UHGV virus genome: UHGV-0027446
DNA from: a virus
Length of the DNA: 44,346 nt
Reading direction: 5' to 3' (one strand)
Part shown: piece by piece, positions 17,974 through 23,116 of the stretch
Position numbering within the stretch: position 1 is the first letter of the stretch
Layout of the letters: every line of letters starts with the position of its first letter
Made by a program: the position numbers and the translations under genes
Notes under the pieces: generated by a model
Databases searched by the model: none
What the model was told of the DNA's origin: nothing
The model's input: only the letters and a program-made list of their open reading frames with translations

Positions 17974-18002
17974 TTGACTTTTACTAAGAAATATGGTAAG
18001 CT
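17974..18002 (+). promoter_or_regulatory. extended -10 promoter of conserved element copy R1 (TTGACT-N14-TGgTAAGCT)
   Basis: Near-identical promoter at 31328..31356. Confidence 0.45.
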
Positions 18003-18005
18003 CAG

Positions 18006-18215
18006 CCTGAGCTTGTGAAGTATGAACAAGCGACCGCGGCGCGCGGCAGGCGAAACGAGCACGTGTAGCGTGTGGAGTGAGGCTCGCTAGCGCGTTTGGG
18101 AGGCCCAAAGTCTATTGTAATTCCAGCCTAAATATCTAAGTTACTGATTTGCCGTAGGTTTTATCCGCAAGCTCACTCACTCACTCTTGGTGCCTTCGGC
18201 ACCACGTTCGTTTCG
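18006..18215 (+). ncRNA. candidate conserved leader / small RNA, copy R1
   Basis: Begins at predicted TSS with 38 nt identical to 31360..31397, including hairpin GCTTGT-gaagtatga-ACAAGC; ends near GGTGCC-TTCG-GGCACC hairpin. Confidence 0.3.
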
Positions 18216-18280
18216 TTTCGCTCGCTATCCCCTTAAACAAAAGAATCACAACGGCAACGTAACCATTTTCGATGAATCTC

Positions 18281-18309
18281 TTGCACACCCCAACATAATA
18301 GGCTACTAT
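18281..18309 (+). promoter_or_regulatory. sigma70-type promoter, family B (TTGCAC-N17-TACTAT)
   Basis: TTGCAC accccaacataataggc TACTAT; near-identical copies at 31233 and 40095 (minus) and 19646 (plus). Confidence 0.5.
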
Positions 18310-18343
18310 TCACTTATCGAAACGAGACAGAGGAGTGAGGGCT

Positions 18344-18523
18344 ATGTTTAAACGTGGTCAAATCGCACGAGACAACAACGGTTCTATTTATTCTATCCGC
18401 AGCATGGAGATTTTTAATGGGTTCTACCGTGTGCAGGATGTTGTTTCGGGAAAGGTGCTTGTGCGCCATGCTTCAAATTTAAAACTCATCGGCAACAATT
18501 TTAAATTCAAAGGGGCGAAGTGA
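18344..18523 (+). CDS. hypothetical protein
   Basis: ATG after GAGGAG; first gene after promoter. Confidence 0.4.
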   Translation: MFKRGQIARDNNGSIYSIRSMEIFNGFYRVQDVVSGKVLVRHASNLKLIGNNFKFKGAK

Positions 18524-18708
18524 TGGAAGAATTAATTTACGACGTATACGTCGACGGGGTTATCTCAGAGACGACAAGTAATAGAGATTACGCAATAAAG
18601 CTGTATGTGTATTACGCGGCCATTGTAGGAAAGATGGTAGAAGTGCGGGAGCGAACGGCATCGAATCATGATGCTCGTGCCGACGACTCTGAGGGAGGTT
18701 GCCGTTGA
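18520..18708 (+). CDS. hypothetical protein
   Basis: ORF overlapping previous stop. Confidence 0.35.
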   Translation: MMEELIYDVYVDGVISETTSNRDYAIKLYVYYAAIVGKMVEVRERTASNHDARADDSEGGCR

Positions 18709-18899
18709 TGAGGACTCGAATAATTAATGTCGATTATGTGCTGCCGCCGGGGTATGGCGACCATTCTTTGCGCCACTTTGGTGTTTCGGTCGGCGATGAG
18801 TTCGAGGTTACGTCAAGTAATGATTATGGATGCACAGTCGAACACTGCGGAGAGGAACTGTACGTGCGTAGACGAGAATACGTAATTCTGGAGGACTAA
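18699..18899 (+). CDS. hypothetical protein
   Basis: ORF overlapping previous gene end. Confidence 0.35.
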   Translation: MPLMRTRIINVDYVLPPGYGDHSLRHFGVSVGDEFEVTSSNDYGCTVEHCGEELYVRRREYVILED

Positions 18900-19317
18900 G
18901 TTATGAGAGAAGCATTCGAACGGTGGGCCATCGTCGAGGGTCTGCCGGTTAACAAGGGCTCGAAGAAAGAATACCTGAACGTTAAGACGCGTCTCGCGTG
19001 GCGGGCGTGGAAAGCTGGTGCGCAATCTGTGGTGAATAAGGGGTGATTTAAGGGCGAGTGGATTAAGTGTAGTGAGCGGATGCCTGATAGCAATTGCTTG
19101 TATCTTTGCTGTGGGACGTATTTTGAAGGGGGTGAACCAGGTTACATTCCTGCTTATTTCTATACCCATCAAACCAATGGATGAGCGGAGCGGCAGCCGG
19201 TAGAGGATGACTGCAACCCTCGTGAAGTAAGTGTAACTCACTGGATGCCGTTACCTGAGCCGCCGGAAGTGTGATGTCATATTGTAACAATAGTTTGGGA
19301 TTTTACTGAGTGACTTA

Positions 19318-19356
19318 CGCTGCTGTGTAGCAGCGTATCATTTTTCTCATTTTTGT
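19318..19356 (+). terminator. rho-independent terminator
   Basis: TACGCTGCT-GTGT-AGCAGCGTA stem-loop followed by TCATTTTTCTCATTTTT. Confidence 0.5.
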
Positions 19357-19407
19357 TCTATTTCACTAAACGCAACAATCGAAGCGACTATTGCAGGAGA
19401 TGCAACA

Positions 19408-19638
19408 ATGAAACTAACGAAACGACAGGCAGAGACCTTACGGGAAATCGCAAACGGCAGAACTATGCTCAGGGGCAGGTTCGACCGGTACTGGTGGCAA
19501 GATTCTGATGAGTTATGCACTATGGTCGCCCGACGTCTCCGTAGCAAAGGGCTTATTAGAACTGTGTATCTCAGTGCCACTCGTGATGTGGTTCAGATAA
19601 CCGTGGCAGGTGAAAGCGAGTTACTAAAACACCAATAA
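19408..19638 (+). CDS. hypothetical protein
   Basis: ATG after GCAGGAGA SD. Confidence 0.4.
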   Translation: MKLTKRQAETLREIANGRTMLRGRFDRYWWQDSDELCTMVARRLRSKGLIRTVYLSATRDVVQITVAGESELLKHQ

Positions 19639-19645
19639 AATTTAC

Positions 19646-19674
19646 TTGCACGCTGAGCTAGAATAGGCTACTAT
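19646..19674 (+). promoter_or_regulatory. sigma70-type promoter, family B (TTGCAC-N17-TACTAT)
   Basis: TTGCAC gctgagctagaataggc TACTAT, then conserved leader with GAGAGGAGAG SD. Confidence 0.5.
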
Positions 19675-19705
19675 TCATTTACACAAACGAGAGGAGAGAC
19701 AGAAG

Positions 19706-19843
19706 ATGAAATACGAAAGATACATAATTATGGACGGGGTTAAAAAATTGAGCGGATGGTGCCGGCTAGATTGGGCTCGTGATGCACTCGATTTTTATAT
19801 TTCAAACGGGCTAACAACAGCACGTATCGTACCCATTCATTAG
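19706..19843 (+). CDS. small hypothetical protein (45 aa)
   Basis: Hand-translated MKYERYIIMDGVKKLSGWCRLDWARDALDFYISNGL...; strong SD. Confidence 0.3.
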   Translation: MKYERYIIMDGVKKLSGWCRLDWARDALDFYISNGLTTARIVPIH

Positions 19844-19867
19844 TTCTAGTGGGAGGAGAGACCGAAG

Positions 19868-20287
19868 ATGGGTAACAAAAACGAAGTATTCGAGTACCTG
19901 ATTGACAAACTACGGCAGCAGGTAACTAACAACCAGTGCGAAGACCTGGCGCATGAGGTGCAGTCACTTAAGAACCAGTTACGTGACGCGTCGGCGCAGA
20001 TTAAGGAGTTGCATCTGGCATTGGCCAAGGCTACATGCGATGTAGAGGCTTATAAACTTATCCGCGAATGTGGGTCTATCGATGGCGGTCGGCGATATGT
20101 AGTGGGTGAACATGTGCCCGGGGCAACGGTAAATTGTCGGTGTACCCCGACGCCTGTACCGCCAGAACAATCCGGTTGCCGTAAAGAGGATACCCAGGAA
20201 TGGCCCTACCGTTTCTATTATGTAGTGACAGATGGCTCCGCGCCGTTCGGTACGAAAGTATGTAAAACGTGCGGGGGATACTTCTGA
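19868..20287 (+). CDS. Cys-rich hypothetical protein
   Basis: ATG after GGGAGGAGAG; multiple CxxC pairs in C-terminal half. Confidence 0.45.
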   Translation: MGNKNEVFEYLIDKLRQQVTNNQCEDLAHEVQSLKNQLRDASAQIKELHLALAKATCDVEAYKLIRECGSIDGGRRYVVGEHVPGATVNCRCTPTPVPPEQSGCRKEDTQEWPYRFYYVVTDGSAPFGTKVCKTCGGYF

Positions 20288-20490
20288 TGACCAGCATCTT
20301 ATTTATATGGGTATTGTCGGCGGGCCAGATGCAACTAGCGGCATCAGAAACGTTTTACTCGATGGAGGCGTGCCAGTCAGCGGCACGCGCCGCGGAGAAC
20401 GCGCACTTCCTGTTTCAGGGCGACAAGCCCAACGATTCAGAGGTACGCGCTATATGCTCACCCAAGCGACTTGGTAAACAGGAGAAGTGA
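20287..20490 (+). CDS. small protein with N-terminal hydrophobic signal-like segment
   Basis: MTSILFIWVLSAGQMQLAASE...; ATG overlapping previous stop. Confidence 0.4.
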   Translation: MTSILFIWVLSAGQMQLAASETFYSMEACQSAARAAENAHFLFQGDKPNDSEVRAICSPKRLGKQEK

Positions 20491-20492
20491 TT

Positions 20493-20783
20493 ATGGTGCA
20501 GAGATATGAGTTTAAAGATATGGATGCTAGTCCGTACCACCCGTATTACGAGATGGTGGAGAGCGACAAAGGTGACTGGGTGGGCTATGAAGACTACAAG
20601 GAACTTGAGCGTAAGTTCAATGAACTCAGGGCGAGGCGTGTGCGGATACCCAAAGGCGCTTTCGACACTTTAGCGCGGGCAGAAAAAGCGGAAGCTGAGT
20701 TACAGAAATACAAAGACCAGTTCCCTGATTACGTCGAGTGTGCGAACTGTGGGTCGGTTACACATGTGGACGGGGTGGAGTGA
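20493..20783 (+). CDS. hypothetical protein, paralog 1 (MVQRY...GDWVGYEDY family)
   Basis: AGGAGAAG SD; shares N-terminus and GDWVGYEDY motif with next gene. Confidence 0.45.
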   Translation: MVQRYEFKDMDASPYHPYYEMVESDKGDWVGYEDYKELERKFNELRARRVRIPKGAFDTLARAEKAEAELQKYKDQFPDYVECANCGSVTHVDGVE

Positions 20784-20995
20784 TGGTACAGAGATACTTA
20801 TTACAAGGCGGTTTAATAGGGCCGAACGACGAAGGTGACTGGGTTGGTTATGAAGACTACGCGAAACTCGAAGCGCTGTATGCAGCCGCGATAGAACTTA
20901 TGGTGTCTGTGCATAACCGCTATAACACCGATGCATCTCCTGCACTACAAGAATTGTACGAGAAAGCGAGTGGCGCTAATGAGCCTTGCAACTGA
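20783..20995 (+). CDS. hypothetical protein, paralog 2 (MVQRY...GDWVGYEDY family)
   Basis: ATG overlapping previous stop; tandem paralog. Confidence 0.45.
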   Translation: MVQRYLLQGGLIGPNDEGDWVGYEDYAKLEALYAAAIELMVSVHNRYNTDASPALQELYEKASGANEPCN

Positions 20996-21272
20996 CATCC
21001 TGAAACGAAGCGGCCTTGTGCCGCTGTCACCTAGAGCGAACACCCGGATATACAAGCGCCGCCGTAACGCGCTGTACCCGGAGATTCAGGCCAGACGTAA
21101 GGCTGTCCGCGCCTGTGGGTTCCAGAACGGGAAGGCAGTGAATCTCGGTGAGTTCAAAACAAAGGAACGCGCAGTAATCGCAAACCGGTTATTTAATTAC
21201 TGGAAATCGCTGGGGCATGATGATGTTCCGACGAAACCGCAGAGACGACAATACATCTGGAGACATAAATAA
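20979..21272 (+). CDS. basic hypothetical protein
   Basis: Internal ATG of track ORF 20931..21272; start uncertain. Confidence 0.35.
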   Translation: MSLATDILKRSGLVPLSPRANTRIYKRRRNALYPEIQARRKAVRACGFQNGKAVNLGEFKTKERAVIANRLFNYWKSLGHDDVPTKPQRRQYIWRHK

Positions 21273-21347
21273 ACTGTTATTAGGATAATTCCTACCCGTG
21301 CTATCCTCCAGTTACTGCATACTTAATACGCACCTGGAGGATTCATC

Positions 21348-21656
21348 TTGGATAAATTTACTGAAACAGTGACAGGCTGGCTTCTCGCTGCCGCTCTGGC
21401 TGGCGGGGTAATCGGGCTAAGGCAACATAAGTCCGTTATTTCTGGCCCCATCGACGGCTTCTGCTTTATTGCAACTGGCTTCACTTGCGCCGTGTTTGGT
21501 GCACCTCTTGCCGCTCAATGGTTCGGCATTACCGGCGAACGTGAAATAGCTGGCCTCGGATTTATCATTGCCATTCTCTGGATGCCCATCTATTCCCGCC
21601 TCTCCGGTATCGTCGCCGGAGAATACATCTCACGTCGAGGAGGCACAGATGACTGA
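21348..21656 (+). CDS. holin-like membrane protein (three predicted TM segments)
   Basis: TTG start 6 nt after GGAGGA; three hydrophobic segments; immediately upstream of endolysin. Confidence 0.5.
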   Translation: MDKFTETVTGWLLAAALAGGVIGLRQHKSVISGPIDGFCFIATGFTCAVFGAPLAAQWFGITGEREIAGLGFIIAILWMPIYSRLSGIVAGEYISRRGGTDD

Positions 21657-21921
21657 GTTATTCTGGTTCGGCGGTATGCTGGCAATCGGGGGCGCATCGC
21701 TGTTTAATGTATATCACCCCAGCGTTGACGACGGACTATTCGGTCGGGTGCTCTATATCCTGACTGCTATTGTTTGCGCCGCGGGGTGTATCCACCTGTT
21801 ACAGGGCAGCATGTCACCGACGCTGCCTGAGACATTAATCACATTAGTCGCGCTGCGCCAGATTCGCCAGGCGTGGCTGTCGTACGGAGGACATAAGCGT
21901 GTCTCGAAACATTTCAGATAA
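21649..21921 (+). CDS. second holin/antiholin-like membrane protein (two predicted TM segments)
   Basis: ATG after AGGAGG; MTELFWFGGMLAIGGASLF and YILTAIVCAAGCIHLL hydrophobic segments. Confidence 0.45.
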   Translation: MTELFWFGGMLAIGGASLFNVYHPSVDDGLFGRVLYILTAIVCAAGCIHLLQGSMSPTLPETLITLVALRQIRQAWLSYGGHKRVSKHFR

Positions 21922-22387
21922 TGGATTGCATTTTACCGCCGCGTTTGAAGGATTCCGCGGAACTGCGTACCGTGCTACGCCGAACGAGAAGTACCTGACG
22001 ATAGGCTACGGTCACTACGGTCCGGACGTAACCCCGGGCAAGACCATCACTCCGGGACAAGGACTCCTGTTACTAAACCGAGATATGGCTAAGGCGGTAT
22101 CCGCAGTTGATGCAGCAGCACACCATTCACTGACACAAGCCCAGTTCGATGCGGTGTGTGACCTGGTATTTAACGCGGGTGCTGGTGTAATTGCAGCTAC
22201 TACTGGCACAGGTAAGGCGCTGCGTTCCGGTGATATTGTAACTCTGCGGGCTAAGCTGGCGCTGTTCATCAACCAGAACGGCAAACCGTTACTTGGCCTG
22301 CGTCGTCGTACAGCCGGTCGTCTGGCGCTGTTCGACGGTAAACCGTGGCAGGAGGCTGAGGCTATTGGGCGCGCGGTGAAAGGTTGA
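21899..22387 (+). CDS. endolysin, phage lysozyme-like (T4-lysozyme/GH24-type)
   Basis: FEGFRGTAYRATPNEKYLTIGYGHY catalytic-region motif; GTG start after GGAGGA. Confidence 0.8.
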   Translation: MSRNISDNGLHFTAAFEGFRGTAYRATPNEKYLTIGYGHYGPDVTPGKTITPGQGLLLLNRDMAKAVSAVDAAAHHSLTQAQFDAVCDLVFNAGAGVIAATTGTGKALRSGDIVTLRAKLALFINQNGKPLLGLRRRTAGRLALFDGKPWQEAEAIGRAVKG

Positions 22388-22450
22388 CACCTAAGACTAA
22401 TCCGACGATACTTAAATCACCTCCTGTCCCATCCCTCTGCTCTCCAGTTT

Positions 22451-22483
22451 TATCCCGGCCCTGACCCAGCCGGGATTTTTTTT
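22451..22483 (+). terminator. rho-independent terminator
   Basis: ATCCCGGC-loop-GCCGGGAT followed by TTTTTTTTAT. Confidence 0.6.
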
Positions 22484-22505
22484 ATCTGTTTTCTGCAATG
22501 ACTAG

Positions 22506-22534
22506 TTGACTATTACCTGTGACCCTATTATATT
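22506..22534 (+). promoter_or_regulatory. sigma70-type promoter (TTGACT-N17-TATATT)
   Basis: Near-consensus -35, 17-nt spacer containing ccctattat as in family B. Confidence 0.55.
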
Positions 22535-22567
22535 TACTTCATCGACAACGAGAACGGAGTAGAGAAG

Positions 22568-22645
22568 ATGCGTAATTTTCATAACGAACATGTGATGCAG
22601 TTCTATCGCCATAATCTGAAAACTAAAGGAGTGTTTGGAAAATGA
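22568..22645 (+). CDS. small hypothetical peptide (25 aa)
   Basis: Hand-translated; GAGAAG SD; ATGA coupling to next ORF. Confidence 0.2.
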
Positions 22646-22791
22646 AAATCACAGATATCGAAGCATTCAAAGACGCGCAACTTATGGCGCGCATTGCGGT
22701 TAGTAACCTGAACAACAGCATTCCGGCGGATGCGTTCTTGTTCGCCGCGATGCAGACACTGAAAGCAGCTTATGCGGGAGAGAAGAAATGA
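22642..22791 (+). CDS. small hypothetical protein (49 aa)
   Basis: Hand-translated [26 protein letters not shown]...; AGGAG SD. Confidence 0.3.
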
Positions 22792-22946
22792 GCGAACAAG
22801 GTCAAGTAAGCCAACCATTACGAGTAGGCCGTAAAGTCAGTCACACCCCGTTTCCGACACGTGAAGAACTGATGAAACGTAACAGTTTCCCCGGGCCGGA
22901 CAAGAACAAGTATCTCAATCGCATGTGGGGAGCACGCAAAGTATGA
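22788..22946 (+). CDS. small hypothetical protein (52 aa)
   Basis: Hand-translated [22 protein letters not shown]...; ATGA coupled both sides. Confidence 0.3.
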   Translation: MSEQGQVSQPLRVGRKVSHTPFPTREELMKRNSFPGPDKNKYLNRMWGARKV

Positions 22947-23116
22947 CTAACAACGAATATGAGAAACTTAGCGTCGAATCCGCGACCGGTGAGTCTGAAA
23001 TAGCGTGGATTGATGCCCACATCGAGCACCACTTACGGCAGGTAGATAAACTTATGGAGCGTCGCCGTGAACTGATTAACCGCTTCAACCTGAACAAGGG
23101 TGACACCAATGCCTAA
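22943..23116 (+). CDS. hypothetical protein
   Basis: Internal ATG of track ORF 22925..23116, coupled to upstream ORF. Confidence 0.4.
   Translation: MTNNEYEKLSVESATGESEIAWIDAHIEHHLRQVDKLMERRRELINRFNLNKGDTNA

Follow-up and report, generated by a model that had tools for sequence, protein, structure and literature searches.

Genes A and B lie side by side at positions 20493-20995 of the viral genome UHGV-0027446 (44,346 nucleotides, analyzed over its full length and called the window below), and both encode small proteins that start with MVQRY. The question that this locus raises is how two such genes came to be neighbors and what they might do for the phage. The initial annotation had taken them for a tandem duplication of small early genes, often a sign of a host-interaction function under diversifying pressure. 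The comparisons reported here showed that A and B each fill one of two long-standing slots in a dispensable cassette, located between a 67-amino-acid (aa) gene and a 97-aa gene and upstream of the lysis genes, and that alleles of their N-terminal domain (N-domain) are exchanged between slots and between phages by recombination at a conserved cap and anchor, with each allele under purifying selection. The window is a Kagunavirus-like (Guernseyvirinae) Escherichia coli siphophage.

One N-domain on two unrelated tails

The two genes and their parts were placed as follows:

20493-20783, plus strand: gene A (slot 1), 96 aa from its ATG, pI ~5.0 (open reading frame and translation)
20493-20615, plus strand: N-domain of A, residues 1-41, with the MVQRY cap, the variable stretch EFKDMDASPYHPYYEMVESDK, and the anchor GDWVGYEDYKELE
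20694-20780, plus strand: CxxC module of A, residues 68-96, AELQKYKDQFPDYVECANCGSVTHVDGVE, made up of nearly invariant columns in the alignment
20783-20995, plus strand: gene B (slot 2), 70 aa, pI ~4.25 (open reading frame and translation)
20783-20881, plus strand: N-domain of B, residues 1-33, with the MVQRY cap, the variable stretch LLQGGLIGPNDE, and the anchor GDWVGYEDYAKLE
20873-20992, plus strand: helical tail of B, residues 31-70, from the alignment of the gene B family

Besides the MVQRY start, the two proteins share a motif, KGDWVGYEDYKELE in gene A and EGDWVGYEDYAKLE in gene B, with G-D-W-V-G-Y-E-D-Y-x-x-L-E in common. The similarity of the adjacent genes, for which a formal alignment had been proposed as the check, was borne out by BLASTP (18 of 42 identities, E = 2e-9) and by profile-profile comparison of the two families with hhalign (probability 98.8%, E = 4.3e-17). 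The description of the pair that had been given from the letters alone needed two corrections. Gene A has 96 codons from its ATG and not 98, a length reached only with a GTG start at 20487 that has no support from relatives, and the first position of the motif, written as (K/D)GDWVGYEDY(K/A)(E/K)LE, should read K/E; the 70 codons of gene B were right, as was the overlap of the second ATG (20783-20785) with the first stop (TGA, 20781-20783), which share one base in TGATG.

At the DNA level, the similarity comprises a repeat of 48 nucleotides (nt) with 83% identity (20561-20608 and 20824-20871) and one of 14 nt with 93% identity (20493-20506 and 20783-20796). Only residues 1-41 of A and 1-35 of B align; downstream of the motif, neither BLASTP nor hhalign found any alignment, and the C-terminal halves are unrelated, so the paralogy is limited to the N-terminal domain, a third to a half of each protein. 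On these alignments, A and B are confirmed as true paralogues over their N-terminal 35-41 residues. The remainder of gene A consists of a coiled-coil insert (RKFNELRARRVRIPKGAFDTLARAEKAE) and a CxxC/His tail with one Cys-x2-Cys knuckle (C-A-N-C) and one His, and that of gene B, which has one Cys overall, of an "SVH"-type helix-loop-helix tail. The last 17 nt of gene B (20979-20995) overlap the start of the downstream 97-aa gene, and several slot-2 tails keep an ...NEPxN end because the MSLATD start of that gene reads in another frame. AlphaFold2 models of A (predicted local distance difference test [pLDDT], 72.6; strands 5-9 and 19-23, helices 32-51 and 54-76, hairpin 80-91) and of B (pLDDT, 66.5; strands 5-8 and 11-14, helices 23-47 and 53-64) predict two or three short strands and, after them, long helices.

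A search of 5.8 billion proteins gave 408 homologues of gene A and 71 of gene B, on contigs of ~40-45 kb where these were long, and the homologues had no Pfam domain and no informative name. The family was defined here as the MVQRY cap (M-V-Q-R-Y), a variable stretch, and an anchor G-x-[W/Y]-V-x-Y-E-D-Y-x-x-L-E running into a helix, a definition that covers both A and B; across its members, the variable stretch has 10-27 residues, the anchor takes the form dG-x-[W/Y/F/L]-V-x-Y-E-D-Y-[A/K]-x-L-E, and the helix that follows is long. Gene A scored E = 1.9e-17 and gene B 2.1e-14 against the local hidden Markov model (HMM) of the N-domain, the seed alignment of which contains both sequences. The variable stretch falls into discrete types (N-types) that cannot be aligned with one another, and coiled-coil inserts are optional and of at least three kinds. 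Two sorts of tail occur. One, found in gene A, is the AELQKYKDQFPDYVECANCGSVTHVEGVE "CxxC" tail, to which some relatives (P0001, P0004, and P0162) add a zinc ribbon (EC.H.W...C..CG) or a "GENPVP...IIAYRVV" domain. The other is a helix-loop-helix, which includes the SVH type of gene B and the RRYPG, LVKLD, ILGI, GILL, and MGLL types; past the anchor, the SVH tail aligned in hhalign with the RRYPG, LVKLD, MGLL, and GILL types. The N-type of gene B (LLQGGLIGP.D.GDWVG) was combined with at least eight different tails, and its tail with at least seven N-types.

Scans of Pfam, NCBIfam, PADLOC, and PHROGs returned only phrog_29624 and sub-threshold matches to Lar, considered below. The profile of phrog_29624, to which no function is attached, has 60 residues and corresponds to the N-domain plus the CxxC tail. 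Residues 65-96 of gene A, including the C-terminal AELQKYKDQFPDYVECANCGSVTHVEGVE module, match its positions 29-60 (E = 5e-22), whereas gene B, which has no such module, matches only positions 1-32 with its residues 1-31 (E = 2e-4). This entry treats one combination of modules as a family and thereby misses the modularity, the helical-tail proteins of slot 2, and the wide spread of the N-domain.

Slots, alleles, and selection

A 1.1-kb query around A and B matched 317 phage records; most of these belong to Escherichia and Salmonella phages in the genera Kagunavirus and Jerseyvirus. For a census, the N-domain HMM was run over 63 IMG/VR loci found via the conserved downstream gene, three isolates, and the window. 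Among the 42 loci of Kagunavirus type, 15 had two MVQRY genes, as in the window, 17 had one, and 10 had none, and the cassette is therefore dispensable. The CxxC tail belonged to the upstream gene in 14 of the 15 two-gene loci and never to the downstream gene. The 47 genes fell into 16 N-types and 31 combinations of N-type and C-terminal tail. N-types change slot, since the N-type of gene B occupies slot 1 in phage XY1 and at loci L015 and L035. Several genes were products of fusion: in L034, a CxxC module is joined to an ILGI tail at "...PDYV|KLELKL..."; in L018, the upstream gene is joined to a CxxC tail; in L035, an RRYPG tail has an ...HVEGVE end; and L028, like relative P0001, has a zinc-ribbon tail that belongs to the family of the upstream gene. 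These products indicate recombination within the locus.

The unrelated tails and the fixed identity of the slots mean that the pair is not a recent duplication but two old slots drawing on one N-domain pool. The claim of diversifying pressure was examined by pooled Nei-Gojobori estimates of nonsynonymous relative to synonymous differences (pN/pS), with 3-8 sequences per N-type. Within N-types, pN/pS was 0.04-0.6 at pS of 0.1-0.4, as under purifying selection; for the CxxC module it was 0.10 and for the ILGI module 0.21. In the variable stretch, the small samples of 3-8 sequences per type gave values of 0.00-0.59 and none above 1, and no positive selection through point substitutions was seen in them. 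On this evidence from sequence comparison, each "hypervariable" type is an old, conserved allele, and the diversity of the family is one of discrete alleles reshuffled by recombination.

The conserved cap and anchor could in principle reflect a signal in the DNA or RNA. In 50 genes, the residues conserved in the anchor were encoded by several synonymous codons (Gly 4, Val 4, Leu 5, Tyr 2, and Asp 2), as were the cap Val (4) and the cap Arg (4); with the cap Tyr included, the range was 2-5 codons per residue. The constraint is therefore on the protein and not on a DNA or RNA signal, which led to the rejection of a DNA-level cause for the conservation of cap and anchor. An Rfam scan of 18000-23000 gave one sub-threshold match, outside genes A and B, so that no RNA element accounts for the repeats.

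These results bear on two explanations of the pair. A recent tandem duplication evolving under positive selection has in its favor the adjacency of the genes, their common N terminus, and the DNA repeats of 48 and 14 nt. It is nonetheless very unlikely, given that the homology ends at residue 41 of A and 35 of B and does not run the whole length, that slot identity is conserved across phages, that the closest relative of the N-domain of B is found in slot 1 of other phages and not in gene A, and that pN/pS lies far below 1 within allele classes. Hardly any weight is left for chance similarity or for nonfunctional reading frames in which the motif would be a DNA-level recombination scar; modules do exchange at the conserved cap and anchor, which are thus also recombination anchors, but the E values of 2e-9 and 4e-17, the many synonymous codons, the purifying selection, and the hundreds of intact homologues all contradict such a scar.

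The N-domain in other phages and sensitivity to Old

In a search of 1.84 billion proteins, a 35-position profile of the N-domain matched 389 clusters (50% identity representatives) at E <= 1e-3, nearly all with the domain at residue 1. The 142 relatives that were fetched in this search and had not previously been in hand had a median length of 81 aa and mostly consisted of the N-domain and a coiled coil; the pI was below 5.5 in 92%. Eight of the 142 carried the "ETPATDAFLAEVRAQ...QLRKG" body of phrog_492, phrog_614, and phrog_368 (the HK97 gp37/HK620 HkaH/"EaE" family), other distant relatives had zinc ribbons or the IIAYRVV domain, and in six a single chain held two N-domains. In the unrelated siphophage Swiduovirus swi2 (L068 2492-3222), the adjacent genes gp27 (annotated "Eae protein"; N-domain at the N terminus) and gp28 (N-domain at residues 53-95) both encode the domain; this gene pair and the two-copy proteins show that a tandem arrangement of the N-domain recurs. 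A contig of Robbsia andropogonis (L080 2599-3057, minus strand) encodes a 153-aa protein with a MVDRY...SVSYEDYAAME N-domain, a coiled coil, and a DUF551-like end that scored below threshold (18.1 bits; cutoff, 22). This protein, which is probably encoded by a prophage in a Burkholderiaceae genome, places the N-domain outside enterobacterial phages as well. A scan of genome contigs with a degenerate DNA pattern gave 11 matches, about the chance number as estimated by hand, of which 2 were in frame and real.

The names and contig context of the distant relatives' clusters were uninformative, and a literature search on Kagunaviruses found nothing on these genes; one paper on genome reduction concerns Skatevirus and was set aside as irrelevant. 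A profile search of PDB sequences yielded matches at chance level only, among them the "DGNLVLY" strands of pyocin L lectins (E = 0.27), a resemblance that was not taken as evidence.

The cassette resembles the "ea region" of lambdoid and P22-like phages, whose proteins (Ead/Ea22-like and DUF551/EaA-like) are likewise products of dispensable, mosaic small genes with swappable N- and C-terminal modules; the N-domain is itself found joined to coiled coils and, in Robbsia, to a DUF551-like end, and also next to ea-type genes. The window differs in being a virulent member of the Guernseyvirinae in which A and B adjoin lysis genes and not recombination genes, and neither protein has a sequence match to PF13935 or PF04448. 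The HK97 gp37/HK620 HkaH/EaE proteins are also small, acidic, coiled-coil accessory proteins of hypermodular phage regions, but the window proteins lack their C-terminal body.

One member of that group has a reported function. HK446 gp27 (Oad2), described as "related to P22 EaE," is reported to inhibit the P2 OLD nuclease by direct binding, and a 54%-identical homologue is inactive, a narrow specificity consistent with an arms race (2026 preprint, bioRxiv 10.64898/2026.07.10.737580). Relative P0270 aligned with Oad2 at E = 6e-31 from residue 29/36 on, with no alignment of the N termini. The MVQRY domain thus takes the place of the ordinary N terminus on Oad2-type bodies, the MKQM(S/T)LIEMDGF start, in P0270, swi2 gp27, P0193, and P0229. 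The 120 closest homologues of Oad2 all had the other N terminus. A further inhibitor, Oad1 of vibriophage ICP1, is directed at an OLD-family nuclease of Vibrio cholerae. A and B were rejected as Oad2 homologues: hhalign of the alignments A3 (N-domain) and A1 with the Oad2-family alignment gave probabilities below 1% (0.2% and 0.7%), BLASTP of gene A with Oad2 was not significant, and neither A nor B matched phrog_492, phrog_614, or phrog_368. As far as sequence goes, the relationship is a resemblance in kind with a shared module and not membership. Residues 89-104 of Oad2 (L070 7509-8036, minus strand), "YEKFNATISSDSGDFIDGQTLHEF," look faintly like the N-domain "...SDKGDWVGYEDYKEL," at no significant level (hhalign, 0.2%; BLASTP, E = 0.027).

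Kagunaviruses have been described as highly sensitive to restriction-modification (R-M) and variably sensitive to Old in the BASEL study (PMC11990801). The cassette was typed here in the seven BASEL Kagunavirus genomes and set beside the efficiencies of plating (EOP) on Old from the S1 Data of that study:

Bas70: slot-2 gene present; Old EOP 0.2-1.4, mean ~0.7
Bas71: slot-2 gene present; Old EOP 0.04-0.29, mean ~0.17
Bas72: slot-2 gene present; Old EOP 0.29-1.2, mean ~0.8
Bas73: slot-2 gene absent; no plaques on Old
Bas74: slot-2 gene absent; Old EOP 0.003-0.06, ~0.03
Bas75: slot-2 gene absent; Old EOP 0.008-0.06, ~0.03
Bas76: slot-2 gene absent; Old EOP 0.003-0.01, ~0.006

Presence of a slot-2 gene separated the Old-tolerant from the Old-sensitive phages perfectly (n = 7; exact one-sided p = 1/35), and a slot-1 gene was present in all seven. 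Bas70 to Bas72 form no clade at the locus, where the flanking genes are mosaic, and Bas72 and Bas73, which match exactly in the slot-1 gene and the left flank, differ in slot 2. In place of a slot-2 gene, Bas76 (L077 2093-2403) has an unrelated 74-aa open reading frame and one of 29 aa (MIIQLNDSMKADTIQLEDYGIQLAEILAL), the end of which resembles a remnant of an "...EDY..L...AREILGI" slot-2 gene.

Neighboring genes and the role of the cassette

Three genes flank A and B in a chain of five that runs from 19868 to 21272 with successive junctions of TGATG, a 2-nt gap, TGATG, and a 17-nt overlap:

19868-20287, plus strand: upstream mosaic gene (phrog_6094), 139 aa, a coiled coil and a C..CG tail; its stop overlaps the next ATG (TGATG)
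20287-20490, plus strand: left border gene (phrog_3766), conserved, 67 aa, with a hydrophobic signal-like N terminus (MTSILFIWVLSAGQMQLAAS...)
20979-21272, plus strand: right border gene (phrog_9632), conserved, basic, 97 aa, starting MSLATDILK...

The phrog_6094 family (115-221 aa in relatives) has a conserved coiled-coil N terminus and tails with a variable number of "EC.H.W...C..CG" zinc ribbons, a GENPVP-like domain, or, in the window, "...YRFYYVVTDGSAPFGTKVCKTCGGYF." It shares with the extended MVQRY proteins the linker "QSGCRKED..EC," the zinc-ribbon tail "SGCRKED..EC.H.W...C..CG," and the GENPVP-like tail. The phrog_3766 gene is 93-100% conserved in the BASEL phages despite the hypervariability of both its neighbors, and in L009 it is joined to the upstream gene as the result of a deletion. 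Downstream of the phrog_9632 gene lie two holins and an endolysin (21348-22387) and then packaging genes, all on the same strand. Some Kagunaviruses (Bas73, L074 2616-3056; BUCT825; SZH-1; UTEC10) have between the MSLATD gene and the holins an HslV-like peptidase gene, which is absent from the window and is the source of the "protease" annotations in phage records that match the locus. The sub-threshold Rfam match lies just downstream of the endolysin (22425-22483, plus strand; RF02278, a betaproteobacterial toxic small RNA; 25.9 bits against a gathering score of 50; E = 0.041) and is probably due to chance.

The strongest terminator-like hairpin of the region, and the only strong one (19316-19337, plus strand; 9-bp stem, 5 of its pairs G-C, then a T-run), precedes the small plus-strand genes and may mark the boundary of a transcription unit. 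Between A/B and the lysis genes, no convincing promoter or terminator was found, only a weak promoter-like site (9/12) at 21260-21289. The designation of A and B as early genes is thus not established: they lie on the same strand as, and immediately upstream of, the holin/endolysin/terminase block and are tightly coupled to their neighbors. The host-interaction role proposed along with it fits a dispensable, hyperplastic accessory cassette, and the initial interpretation as a whole is supported in part.

About an even chance is given to the reading that A and B come from a modular family of phage accessory proteins that are small (median, ~80 aa) and acidic and have a nonessential role in host interaction or counter-defense, with modular specificity. 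In such proteins, the helices could mediate oligomerization, one binding specificity could come from the variable stretch in the N-domain and another from the swappable tail, and binding and neutralization of host (defense) proteins would be the most plausible mode of action. This would account for the maintenance of many discrete alleles and combinations in the population. Several points weigh against this reading. Pfam, NCBIfam, and PADLOC models and the PDB held no match to A, B, or the N-domain. The structural models of both proteins are of only moderate-to-low confidence, and Foldseek searches with them against the PDB and BFVD gave nothing at E <= 0.001; the sole near-match (BFVD, E = 0.012), a 48%-identical uncharacterized viral protein, is probably a family member. 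The position beside the lysis genes on the same strand also fits a late or lysis-related role. The correlation with Old comprises seven phages and is confounded by the host, since another strain served for the assays of Bas74 to Bas76, and by the other differences among the mosaic genomes; the slot-2 genes behind it all have ILGI tails, to which the SVH tail of gene B is not detectably related past the anchor in hhalign, and A and B have no homology to Oad2.

Three more specific roles can be set against this evidence. Coexpression of A and B with the holins and endolysin, with an effect on lysis timing or another late step, would agree with the shared strand, with a location one gene upstream of the holin-holin-endolysin block, with the overlapping or abutting stop and start codons that link the five genes between 19868 and 21272, and with the lack of a terminator-like site before the lysis genes. 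This role is unlikely, however, as a quarter of the related phages keep the same lysis cassette without any MVQRY gene, dozens of discrete alleles are not expected of lysis regulators, and the same N-domain occurs in lambdoid ea-type regions unrelated to lysis. Binding and blocking of OLD-family ATPase-nucleases such as P2 Old by slot-2 proteins and, by extension, gene B, in the manner of Oad2, is likewise improbable. It draws on the tolerance of Old by Bas70 to Bas72 and not by Bas73 to Bas76, on the Bas72/Bas73 comparison, on the exchange of N termini on Oad2-type bodies in other phages, and on the narrow specificity reported for Oad2 (bioRxiv 10.64898/2026.07.10.737580), which fits an arms race. 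Apart from the confounding, the tail mismatch, and the missing homology already given, sensitivity to OLD can also hinge on a phage-encoded trigger, such as a RecBCD inhibitor.

The third role, that slot-1 proteins such as gene A are zinc-ribbon modulators of type I R-M like Lar of the Rac prophage, is highly improbable. Lar-family members are small phage proteins with CxxC knuckles, and the weak matches do fall in the CxxC region: PF14354 (Lar_restr_allev) gave gene A 13.5 bits (E = 0.086) and P0001, with its zinc-ribbon extension, 19.6 bits (E = 0.0011), and the distant two-domain relative P0192 weakly matches phrog_3592, "Lar-like." All these scores are, however, under the PF14354 gathering cutoff of 28.6 bits, and gene B had no match to PF14354 in the Pfam scan; gene A has one knuckle and not two, the second appearing only in extended relatives such as P0001. 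In published data on relatives, as distinct from the gene of the window itself, carriers of slot-1 genes are strongly restricted: Bas70 to Bas73, the only members of the set with EcoKI values (there are none for Bas74 to Bas76), all have a slot-1 CxxC gene and are restricted to ~1e-3 to 1e-5 on EcoKI, all seven BASEL Kagunaviruses are restricted by other R-M systems (EOP from ~0.1 down to 1e-7), and the authors describe the genus as highly R-M sensitive (PMC11990801).

Small unannotated genes abound in the plastic regions of phage genomes, and several such regions have proved to hold counter-defense proteins. The MVQRY family was previously undescribed but is of an ordinary kind among phage accessory families; its domain is now definable, with a recombination mechanism, and occurs in hundreds of protein clusters, although no curated library holds it. 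Two easy readings are weakened, namely, a recent duplication under positive selection, which the tests did not support, and Lar-like anti-restriction, for which the contrary evidence is indirect and comes from published restriction data on relatives. An effect of slot 2 on Old sensitivity is a lead and not proof, and should it fail, A and B would be an ordinary pair of mosaic accessory genes. A bolder proposal, which we consider unlikely, is that the MVQRY domain marks a large uncurated superfamily of modular counter-defense proteins, each a small beta-domain with a variable stretch on a coiled coil that could be combined at will with effector tails, and that slot-2 members with helical tails, possibly including gene B, neutralize OLD-family nucleases. 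If that were true, the allele content of the cassette would predict which defense systems a phage overcomes. The cassette itself is a clean natural case of domain shuffling, in which one N-domain, many tails, and two slots are combined with a polymorphism of presence and absence.

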